64,000 bases of DNA from Amoebidium appalachense (GCA_963693365.1 CAVNZM010000017.1:4507375-4571374); one strand, 5' to 3'. Numbered from the stretch's first letter, positions 18,601 through 20,629 are shown. The notes: generated by a model from the letters alone, not told the origin. A program made the numbers and translations.

Positions 18601-20629
18601 CCCCCCAGTCTTCTTTCAGAGGTGTCCTTTCAGGACAGACCACTATGTGGAGACCGCTTTACTTCCATGCAACCGGGCATGGTTGCTCTGTGTCGTGCAT
18701 CTGTAAGCACATACGCATTTTTCGCTGCACTGCATTAGTTTGCACACACATCTTCACCGTTTTGCTCACCTTGCTTGCATAAGCAACCCTGCTCGTCTTT
18801 GATCAAGACGGGTTGACCCTCCCAAGTTCAGTTGATGCTGCTGTCTGAGTTGGAGAGTCGTATATACGCGGGCTAAGGGGTCGAAACTCAGACGCAATTG
18901 ATGACTTGGGCCCTCCCTGAGGATGGGCTCTGCTTATGACGCATACTGTGAGCATGGCTGATGTTGCATACTTGAATGTTTGCCTTTGCATGTGTCCTTC
19001 GTGTATGCGTATTTCGTACCGTGTTCCGCATTCAACCCCCCCCCCCCCAAAAAAAAAAAAAAAAAAAAAAAAAAAACCCCACACATCCACATCCCCCCTC
19101 CCCCTCCCCCCTCCCCCCCCCCCCCCCCCGCCCCCGACCACTTCCCCCCTCTCAAACCCACACATACATCCCCCTTACACACACACAAACCCCCCTTCAC
19201 CCCCTCCACCCCCCCCCCCCCCCCCCCCCCCCCCCCACACACACACACACACACACACACAGGGTCTTCCCTACCATGCATCCGAGGTTTCACCCCAGGA
19301 GCTTTTACGCAGCAGTCTCAACAAACAGCCCACCCTCATCCCACTGCCTGCCCTCTTTGACGATCTATTTGTGTCATTCCGTACGAAGGTGTGCTCGGTA
19401 GGTTTATTATCACCCCCCCCCCCCCCCCCCCCCCCCCCCCTCTCCTCCCCCGGTGGTATACCTCTTCGGTCATTCCTTTGGACCAGCATTTCTCGTGTAT
19501 GTCCACTATTGTATTGCTTCATAATCCCCCCCCCACCCCCCCCCCACCCCCCCAAAAAAATAAATAAAAATGTGCATCTGGTTTATAGCCTCTTGAACTC
19601 TCCTTCCTCTCCCTGGGTGATACGTCGCAATCCCCCCCTCCCCCCCCCCCCCCCCCCCCCCCCCCCAACCTTAACCTGGCCCTTTCCTTCACATTTGCAC
19701 GGTTCTCAGACAGAGTTCGGTTGGCATGCCAAAAAAAAAAAAAAAAAAAAAAAAAAAAAAAAAAGCATGCCCTATTTGGGTAGTGTATTACACGTGTGCA
19801 CACTCACCGGTGACTCAAATACATTGCTAAGGAATAGTTTTTCTGGTGAATTAAATGCAATACTAACGAACAGTTTTTATAAACACACAAAAAAATAGGA
19901 ATATTTATGGCCACTCTTTTTTATTTGCCCTGGTGACTTTTGACACCCGTCCCTTGCTACAGTAACATTACCAAGCTGATGCATCCACCACACATACTCA
20001 AAACACACACACACACACACGTGTGCACGCACATACGCACACGCGCACACACACACAAGGACATGCCTCCCCCCCCTCTCTCTTCCCCCCCCCCCCCCCC
20101 CACACGCACACACACACACCTTCAACCCCCCCCCCTCCTCCCCCCCCTCCCCACACACACACACACCTTCAAACCCCCCCCCCCCCCCCCCCACACACAC
20201 ACACACGTACAGCACTGCCAAACTGTCCCCGAATACCCTGCCCTCTGCCTCATGTGTGGGGAGCTCCAATGCTTTGGGGGCAGATGTTGCAGCACCCGAG
20301 ATCCCTACATACCCCCTGCGGGTGGGGGGAACGATGAAACGACCGGGAAAATTGGTGAATGTGTCCGACACGCGCGAAAATGCGGAACTGGGACGGGGAT
20401 TTTTCTCCTCCTTCAGGCAACGACTGTATACGTGATACGCGGGAAGAGGGGGTTCGTGTGGGGATCTCCATATTTGGACGCTTTTGGGGAGGAGGATGTG
20501 GATTTGAAGAGGGGGAAACCGCTTTTCTTTAACACGGACAGATACTTGAAGCTGCAGGCGTTGTGGAGGCGGCAGGAATTTGAATATTCATTTTCGCAGA
20601 GGTGGACGTGGCACCATAGTGCGTATTGA
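694..20629 (+). CDS. UBR3: UBR3-like E3 ubiquitin ligase (N-recognin); 5' exons lie upstream of the window
   Basis: Manually spliced GT-AG exons starting near 694 ([11 protein letters not shown]), 1729, 2337, 3597 ([16 protein letters not shown]), 4447 ([16 protein letters not shown]), 5181, 6329, 7286, 8026, 8833 ([24 protein letters not shown]), 9826 (ECVICS), 10345, 10881 ([10 protein letters not shown]), 11549 ([18 protein letters not shown]2), 13143, 14033, 14746, 15467, 16380, 17252 ([10 protein letters not shown]), 19263 and 20213-20629 (CLMCG...[11 protein letters not shown]...[22 protein letters not shown]). These are diagnostic UBR1/2/3 motifs; UBR3 rather than UBR1/2 is judged by recalled similarity. 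Confidence 0.9.
2425..3130. repeat. Degenerate ATATCTC-rich intronic minisatellite
   Basis: Recurrent tatatctcc(c/t)gtatatctc and tacctgcctttctctgt motifs. Confidence 0.55.
5447..5711. mobile_element. MITE, nearly palindromic over its full length
   Basis: TIRs accaacctccgtatctaccatttta / taaaatggtagatgcggaacttggt, internal inverted arms (cgaggatgatcc/ggatcatcctcg; agatggccc/gggccatct), flanked by TTAA on both sides. Confidence 0.8.
6610..6721 (+). mobile_element. Divergent short copy of the C-tract element family (another related end at 6077-6159)
   Basis: Begins cc|ctgaggatg and ends ~110 nt later at a C run, the same geometry as other copies; interior diverged. Confidence 0.4.
7583..7849. 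mobile_element. MITE sharing TIRs with 5447-5711 but with a different interior
   Basis: tccgtatctaccattgtagggtctgggttgtgagc / gctcgcagcccagacgctaaaatggcaggtacgga; similar length (~265 bp). Confidence 0.7.
10985..11175. repeat. Tandem repeat, ~31-bp unit, about 6 copies
   Basis: ctggatccccccttcatatccatatttcact repeated immediately after a UBR3 splice donor. Confidence 0.85.
13373..13559 (+). mobile_element. C-tract-anchored Penelope-like element 3' end, subfamily C (related ends at 4041-4126, 9577-9620, 12056-12122)
   Basis: gtcGAAAC-N30-CTGATGAtgggctctg, then ~115 nt ending tttccaatcctctaacgcatac + poly-C; the same 3' end recurs three more times, each abutting a C-rich tract. Confidence 0.65.
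16971..17075 (+). mobile_element. Short copy of C-tract element, subfamily B
   Basis: ctgagaatgggctctgcttattatgcatac...gacgcattcaa between two poly-C runs; matches 27010-27111 and the reverse complements of 23076-23183 and 44885-44991. Confidence 0.85.
18480..19035 (+). mobile_element. C-tract element subfamily A with pseudo-LTR-like partial tandem structure
   Basis: ~120-bp direct repeats 18480-18599 and 18917-19035 (few mismatches), each ending gcattcaa + C run; no TG...CA ends, PBS or PPT. Confidence 0.85.
18778..18938 (+). ncRNA. Conserved pseudoknotted RNA with hammerhead core motifs (copy A); candidate ribozyme
   Basis: Six helices, four showing compensatory changes versus copy B; GUU 18849-51, GAAAC 18883-87, CTGAGGA 18917-23. 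Confidence 0.6.

Follow-up and report, generated by a model that had tools for sequence, protein, structure and literature searches.

In the present study, we analysed a dispersed repeat with hammerhead ribozyme motifs in a 64,000-nucleotide (nt) stretch of the genome of Amoebidium appalachense (GCA_963693365.1 CAVNZM010000017.1:4507375-4571374), which is called the window throughout, with positions counted from its first letter. We consider it probable that this repeat is a high-copy, tandem, retrozyme-like retroelement related to the Naiad group of Penelope-like elements, that it carries a split-core hammerhead resembling type SGC with a predicted cut after GUU, and that its unit-length RNAs are circularised as templates for reverse transcriptase (RT). 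Cleavage after 18851 in copy A and after 23245 in copy B is predicted by analogy with the stems of known hammerheads, and we hold it to be rather likely. We use the block names of Eckert et al. 2023 (PMC10085705), in which stem III-UH-stem I forms block S, stem II-GAAA-stem III block G and stem I-CUGANGA-stem II block C. At the step between A9 and G10.1, a two-helix domain made of the closing helix W and the hairpin H is inserted topologically, and block C is split. Judged from the sequences, this layout is present in three families of the window and, by eye, in the tails of animal Naiads. The novelty is confined to the break in block C between A9 and G10.1 and to its occurrence in a chromosomal retroelement; neither the class nor the strand order is new.

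Split core of the hammerhead-type fold and its recurrence

All helices that the first-pass annotation had named are present in copy A (18778-18938, + strand) and copy B (23315-23162, - strand), and the two copies pair in all 90 of the 90 aligned cells of alignment A1. In copy A, the fold is closed by helix W (18778-85 with 18931-38, 8 base pairs (bp)), followed by helix W2 (18787-89 with 18925-27, 3 bp) and hairpin H (18792-99 with 18805-12, spanning 18792..18812). Helix X is stem II (18815-20 with 18877-82, 6 bp), and its 5' strand starts at G10.1, detached from CUGANGA. Helix Z (18821-27 with 18904-10, 7 bp) clamps stems I and II and is the equivalent of the type-SGC interaction helix. Helix Y is stem III (18843-50 with 18886-93, 8 bp), and stem I (4 bp) joins its 5' strand at 18913-16 to its 3' strand at 18852-55. 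The core nucleotides are GAAA (18883-86), CUGAGGA (18917-23) and a GUU whose last U is H17 (U18851), with the predicted cut 3' of it. Read along the + strand, block S (18843..18855) holds the stem III 5' strand, H17 and the stem I 3' strand, and block G (18877..18893) the stem II 3' strand, GAAA and the stem III 3' strand. The stretch 18904..18923 then brings the Z 3' strand, the stem I 5' strand and CUGAGGA, and the 3' strands of W2 and W (18925..18938) follow A9 where stem II would be.

Copy B has the same helices on the - strand, with H17 at 23245 and a stem I of 3 bp; across the copies, stem III has 8-13 bp and stem I 3-4 bp. The hammerhead core CUGANGA, GAAA and UH is present in A, in B, in a further family-B copy called B2, and in family C together with its upstream strand. 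Stems I and III flank this core, and the A15.1-U16.1 and G10.1-C11.1 pairs are formed (G18815-C18882 in A). The earlier assignment of the pairings to hammerhead stems I, II and III holds for A and B, and the third family and the Naiad tails give it further backing. A9 is not followed by stem II after an insertion of one or two nucleotides at most. Instead, the chain continues from A9 into helix W, and the partner strand of W connects through hairpin H to G10.1. The stronger, covarying stem II takes an upstream strand, which lies 100 nt upstream of CUGAGGA and is preceded by the 5' strand of W and by hairpin H. Between Z and stem III, both A and B have a purine-rich internal loop (18828-18842 with 18894-18903; UGA opposite GAUGA), to which a kink-turn can be fitted by eye in A and in the Octopus Naiads, and not clearly in B. 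In the minimum-energy folds of A and B, a local hairpin (18911-18927) covers CUGAGGA, a possible off state.

The third family allowed a prediction of the fold to be examined. Copy C (13374..13559, + strand) holds block G, the Z 3' strand, CUGAUGA and the tail, and is 5'-truncated upstream of block G. It was found as annotated before (a very divergent copy at 13391-13444), with GUCGAAAC at 13391 and CUGAUGA at 13429. Its stem III 3' strand, ACCCAUGCUU, predicts an upstream complementary strand, then H17, then a G-rich stem I strand. For this, public contigs were aligned on 13355-13572 and the loose end before 13384 was read. The loose end gave AAGUAUGGGU, then U, then GGG, which makes a stem III of 10 bp, GUU and a stem I of 3 bp, so the contigs add the upstream stem III, GUU and stem I strands to this copy. 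The sources were contig sets X20 and X13 (1 contig each, agreement 1) and X1 (22 contigs, agreement 0.61). Furthermore, the base at 13428 is C in nearly all contig depth, and with it the stem I partner of family C is restored. A loose end in X19 behind 18817 (2 contigs) shows possible X and Z strands of family C, and this link is not certain. The contigs also gave 22 variant rows for family A, none of which falls on CUGAGGA, GAAA, UU, stem III, Z or X pairs 1-5. Within 18778-18938, two of the variant positions are unpaired, three are at the end of a helix and one lies in stem I, where B has the compensating change.

Naiads have been reported without canonical hammerheads, with only the flags 'HHR_core' and 'HHR_half_core' (Craig et al. 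2021, PMC8557442). We read the consensus sequences in the supplement of that paper by eye around the core motifs, for part of the motif variants. The split layout was seen in 10 Naiad tails among the matches viewed, of 54 consensus sequences: Beroe, three Acropora, two Octopus and four named by file order (Clytia, Morbakka, a syndermatan and Darwinula). In these tails the strands follow as stem II 5' strand, Z, S, G, Z and stem I-CUGANGA, and W and H are mostly recognisable. Their upstream stem II sequences differ from each other, yet are fully paired, and a contiguous stem II does not exceed 2 bp in the five tails checked (Acropora, Octopus, Darwinula, Beroe and Clytia); together this favours the split wiring over a contiguous one. 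Among the matches viewed in the Chlamys consensus sequences (with CTGATGA places 52-62 of 62 and the CTGAAGA variant outside this view), no split-core motif was found. By eye, six nematode and spider Naiad tails of the same supplement carry an intact type CSG at the same place.

The 5'-3' order S, G, C of A and B matches type SGC and not a type I hammerhead. That type was named by Eckert et al. 2023 (PMC10085705), with cleavage in vitro demonstrated at the corresponding site. Since this order was already published, the non-cyclic order that the first-pass annotation took as new is not new. Its proposal of a new ribozyme architecture survives for the split of block C at A9/G10.1, and must be given up for a new ribozyme class, as the fold, which lacks the uninterrupted block C of type SGC, is by its sequence a hammerhead variant. 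The likeness to type SGC (HRIMA-1 and variants, PMC10085705) covers the order, all core nucleotides and two pseudoknots. Helix Z resembles the type-SGC interaction helix in that a strand after the stem II 5' side is joined to a strand before the stem I 5' side. The differences are that block C is split here, that the 5' strands of stem II and Z lie upstream of block S, and that W and H are inserted. In addition, the linkers are longer here: the strands of stems I and II are 18-21 nt apart, compared with 0-8 in the SGC descriptor, and 19 nt precede stem I, compared with 0-15 (PMC10085705). Type CSG, published from only two metagenome sequences and shown to cleave in that order, would give the split form if I-CUGANGA were moved to the 3' end, but in the type-CSG descriptor CUGANGA runs directly into stem II, unlike the split form here (PMC10085705). 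In the pseudoknot-containing hammerhead (PMC11300833), helix II can be a pseudoknot, and the sections available describe no split at the A9 step.

In published hammerheads, at most 1-2 nucleotides are inserted next to CUGANGA (PMC10085705). One extra nucleotide after A9 is common in Penelope-like hammerheads (PMC4209133), which indicates that the position tolerates a bulge; by analogy, a whole domain might be tolerated at A9/G10.1. We found no split core and no non-circular hammerheads in Naiad-like chromosomal elements in open-access PubMed Central and bioRxiv full text, with subscription journals and most supplements outside this scope; the sections available of PMC3088659 and of two 2026 preprints give no description of a split core. 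The published SGC ribozymes come from metatranscriptomes, none of them from genomes of known organisms (PMC10085705), whereas the copies here are chromosomal. Non-circularly permuted hammerheads are thereby moved from rare metatranscriptome RNAs to high-copy chromosomal repeats. The split core also breaks the stated assumption of the permutation scheme that block C is uninterrupted, for which reason current descriptors all miss the fold. An insertion point beside the active site would be useful for ribozyme switches.

Carrier repeat and proposed replication

The family-A monomer (18607..19043, + strand) is a head-to-tail unit of about 437 nt including a 7-C junction. It is preceded by A0 (18474..18606, + strand), the 3' end of the preceding monomer, which is 5'-truncated at a C-run and 97% identical to 18911-19043, so that A0 and A together make about 1.3 units. 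The head-to-tail joint from 19035 to 18610, via letters of the C-run, was found in contigs of X1 (14), X14 (2) and X20 (1), and 13043 X1 contigs align to the unit. The unit is non-coding, with no long open frame, and has one ribozyme in its middle. It was found in contig sets X19 and X20, with the joint in X20; that both sets come from RNA is a guess. A dip in X19 depth near the cut site was set aside because contig depth cannot show ends. The stretch is present in 20 of the 24 runs listed, from 7 studies and under five organism labels.

The family-B copy (23077..23750, - strand) is 5'-truncated and lies between C-runs of 27 and 42, with its ribozyme at 23315-23162 and the predicted cut after 23245. 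A 62-codon open frame (23564..23749, - strand) ends upstream of this ribozyme and is possibly the 3' end of the open reading frame (ORF) of an autonomous element. Searches with this frame gave no usable homologue and only repetitive, unrelated proteins, with no Atlas match and no Pfam match; a presumed likeness to the thumb motif of a Penelope-like RT was not counted. Beyond the copies of the first-pass annotation, the window holds B2 and about ten shorter 3' copies. B2 (44886..45062, - strand) starts about 10 nt upstream of its cut site (H17 at 45053) and has blocks S, G and C without the upstream stem II strand. A family-A 3' part, A2 (45081..45228, - strand), stands in tandem in front of it. 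Decayed 3' parts of further subfamilies, D1 and D2, are in tandem at 46260..46560 (- strand), as are two family-A tails at 47019..47251 (- strand), and family-B 3' fragments lie between C-runs at 16965..17075 and 27014..27111 (both + strand).

Thirteen copies of four subfamilies in the window reach the 3' end of the element. A C-run of at least 7 lies within 12 nt of that end in each of the 9 copies not used as queries, compared with 3.4% of background positions, and a C-run of at least 6 stands at the 5' end of 9 of the 13 copies, three of these being tandem junctions. The 3' end is fixed at the C-run; the 5' ends vary and show no clustering at the predicted cut site, 245 nt into the unit. 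The copies were observed as 5'-truncated, partly tandem insertions in microsatellites, dispersed on both strands. The window as a whole has very many C/G homopolymer runs and (CA)n tracts, and some of its C-runs may be tails or targets of the element family.

Naiad and Chlamys elements insert in microsatellites, with (C)n in many Chlamys (PMC8557442). The repeat resembles Naiads in the split-core layout at the 3' end, the partial tandems, the 5' truncation and the microsatellite targets, and differs in that Naiads are autonomous, from animals, and mostly in (TA)n where a preference is listed, whereas the target here is (C)n and family A has no ORF (PMC8557442). Animal retrozymes without long terminal repeats (non-LTR retrozymes; PMC7229834; Li et al. 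2026, 10.64898/2026.07.22.740005) consist, as here, of units that are non-coding, a few hundred nt long and arranged head to tail, each with one hammerhead, and have been proposed to be non-autonomous derivatives of Penelope-like elements (PLE). They carry type I hammerheads in units of 170-400 nt, in contrast to the 437 nt and the non-circularly permuted split core found here, and the present host is neither an arthropod nor a plant. In animals, tandem hammerhead repeats yield RNA circles (Cervera and de la Pena 2020, PMC7229834), for which ligation by protein ligases is favoured (PMC7229834), and internal initiation has been documented for a Penelope-like element of the anole (PMC11167929).

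On this basis, a replication cycle can be proposed. A multimeric transcript would be cut once per unit after GUU, and the new ends of the cut monomer would stay paired via W, X, Z and stem III (29 bp in A). With the ends held together by pairing, ligation to a circle would be favoured, and an RNA circle would result. The RT of an autonomous partner would then be primed on the G-strand of a (C)n tract and would start at the C-run of the RNA, about 190 nt 3' of the cut. Copying across the cut site would give 5'-truncated and more-than-unit copies such as A0 with A. Copying of uncleaved precursors is a real alternative to this, since cleavage is dispensable in vitro for the anole element. A wider proposal, which we put forward tentatively and regard as having somewhat less than an even chance, is that the hammerhead core is built from four strands, that the inserted two-helix domain cages the cut ends and drives self-circularisation, and that this is the hidden ribozyme of Naiad-type elements, older than animals, from which a family of retrozymes targeting (C)n arose in a microbial eukaryote.

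The fold is a candidate answer to the published puzzle of the apparent lack of hammerheads in Naiad elements, to which the window contributes another host, (C)n as the target, three families that have diverged and a non-coding unit in tandem. The role of the ribozyme in Penelope-like transposition (processing, circles, more-than-unit copies) becomes testable with a 160-nt transcript.

Alternative explanations of the fold and its carrier

Between A and B, four pairs of alignment A1 are changed on both sides and three on one, and stem I, misplaced in the alignment, contributes a fifth pair with both sides altered (A-U to G-C). Helix X has two double changes, and helix Z has one double and one single change. 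Structures slid along the alignment pair in 29-51% of the cells. Since only two full sequences are available and 25 of 500 shuffles equal their covariation, the A/B covariation is weak evidence, and these homologous copies, the two complete ones of a repeat-rich window, are what a reading by chance complementarity can draw on. We used a descriptor with lenient thresholds (stem III at least 5 pairs, stem I at least 3, upstream stem II at least 4, Z at least 5). It gave three S-G-C matches in the window (18851, 23245 and 45053), two of which, A and B, have the upstream stem II plus Z and were counted as one event because they are homologous. In 6414 dinucleotide-shuffled windows (2-kb (kilobase) blocks, both strands), there were 368 S-G-C matches and only 5 matches to the full layout. 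With the predicted strand recovered in family C and the layout recurring in Naiad tails, chance is effectively refuted. Rfam gave 0 matches at gathering score in the window and no ribozyme among 20 matches at E<=10 within 18400-23700; the comparison with Rfam that had been suggested before thus finds no match to a hammerhead family in the window, as is expected for a permuted order. Pattern scans of viral contigs gave 0 and 0 matches. The 8 loci from a scan of metagenome contigs, with no flanking helices by eye, and the 5 loci from prokaryote genomes were taken as chance. An ordinary type-SGC hammerhead is a further possibility, in which stem II would be built, past an insertion of 2 nt, from the strand immediately 3' of CUGANGA and X would be an off-switch on monomers or circles. 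This pairing is possible in A (-5.8 kcal/mol), weak in B (-2.2 kcal/mol) and reaches 6 bp by eye in C, and the published SGC descriptor permits U after A9 (PMC10085705). However, helix X is stronger in both copies (-8.7 kcal/mol in A and -6.7 kcal/mol in B) and has the two compensatory changes, which bears out the earlier claim that the stem II 5' strand comes from upstream. The contiguous pairing is moreover G-U rich and costs part of W, and the Naiad homologues checked have no such pairing and all have X, so we find this wiring improbable.

Several observations weigh against the split-core ribozyme and its retroelement carrier as we propose them. The nested minimum-energy folds have only moderate stability (z -2.1 and -2.6), and in them CUGAGGA is part of the local hairpin, which competes with the short stem I of 3-4 bp and might delay or control cleavage. 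A contiguous stem II with the 2-nt insertion can also be drawn in the families of the window. Most family-A contigs fail to form the sixth pair of X (about 62% of the depth of this family in X1), and identification of the X and Z strands upstream in family C is not certain. No precedent for catalysis with an inserted domain was found in the literature searched, and the published limit is 1-2 nt (PMC10085705). No RT or GIY-YIG domain was found in 130 frame scans of the window (7 + 123). The anole Penelope-like element inserts in vitro without hammerhead cleavage, with no reads ending at the cut (PMC11167929). Together with the poor cleavage by minimal hammerheads of metazoan PLE (PMC4209133), the short stem I and the competing hairpin, and given that cleavage of the fold is a prediction only, the anole result would suit a conserved RNA that is non-catalytic or protein-assisted, a hammerhead-derived recognition signal for RT. 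Such a signal seems to us quite unlikely, because three families and distant Naiad tails preserve H17 and every catalytic position, with helices that vary freely, and because nematode and spider Naiads carry at the same place an intact type CSG, an order shown to cleave. The ribozyme may also be read correctly and its carrier be something other than a Penelope-like element, either a satellite amplified at the DNA level or a parasite of another retrotransposon, e.g. HERO. This concerns the carrier alone and overlaps with our claim on the ribozyme. A partner ORF was found neither in the frame scans of the window nor in the searches with the 62-codon frame, and Chlamys is the (C)n-preferring clade, yet showed no split fold in the matches viewed. 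On the other hand, the repeat fits Naiad and Chlamys elements (PMC8557442) in having copies scattered over both strands, a 3' end that is fixed, 5' ends that vary, partial tandems and targets in microsatellites, and such an insertion pattern is not expected from amplification at the DNA level. We therefore regard a different carrier as unlikely, and keep the Naiad-related retroelement with a split-core hammerhead as the probable explanation.

Genomic surroundings of the copies

A gene of many exons for a UBR3/PRT6-like E3 ligase occupies 1714-20626 on the + strand; examples of its exons are 3600-3827, 4407-4559, 9855-9947, 10875-10979, 11544-11600, 17256-17573, 19323-19400 and 20216-20626. Copy A lies in sense within the intron between the exons at 17.3-17.6 kb and 19.3 kb, and an active ribozyme would therefore cut the pre-mRNA. 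Proteins of copepods, insects, plants and red algae share 38-49% identity with the last exon of this gene. This exon forms a long branch outside the arthropod clade when 26 of the 87 matches are used, a set without other animals or protists.

On the - strand, a long exon of a seven-transmembrane (7TM) protein lies at 58313-59713, with a weak match to Pfam 7tm_3 (E 0.001, below the cut-off); no homologue of this protein was found at E<=0.001. Leucine-rich-repeat-like coding fragments in two frames, with weak Pfam scores, lie at 24210-24783 (- strand). Another dispersed repeat pairs 30307-30876 with 63424-64000 and 30925-31113 with 62558-62748, at 90-97% identity and in opposite orientations. 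In addition, there are tandem arrays at 36189-36643 (43-nt unit) and, with degenerate short units, at 47980-48760 and 43556-44261.

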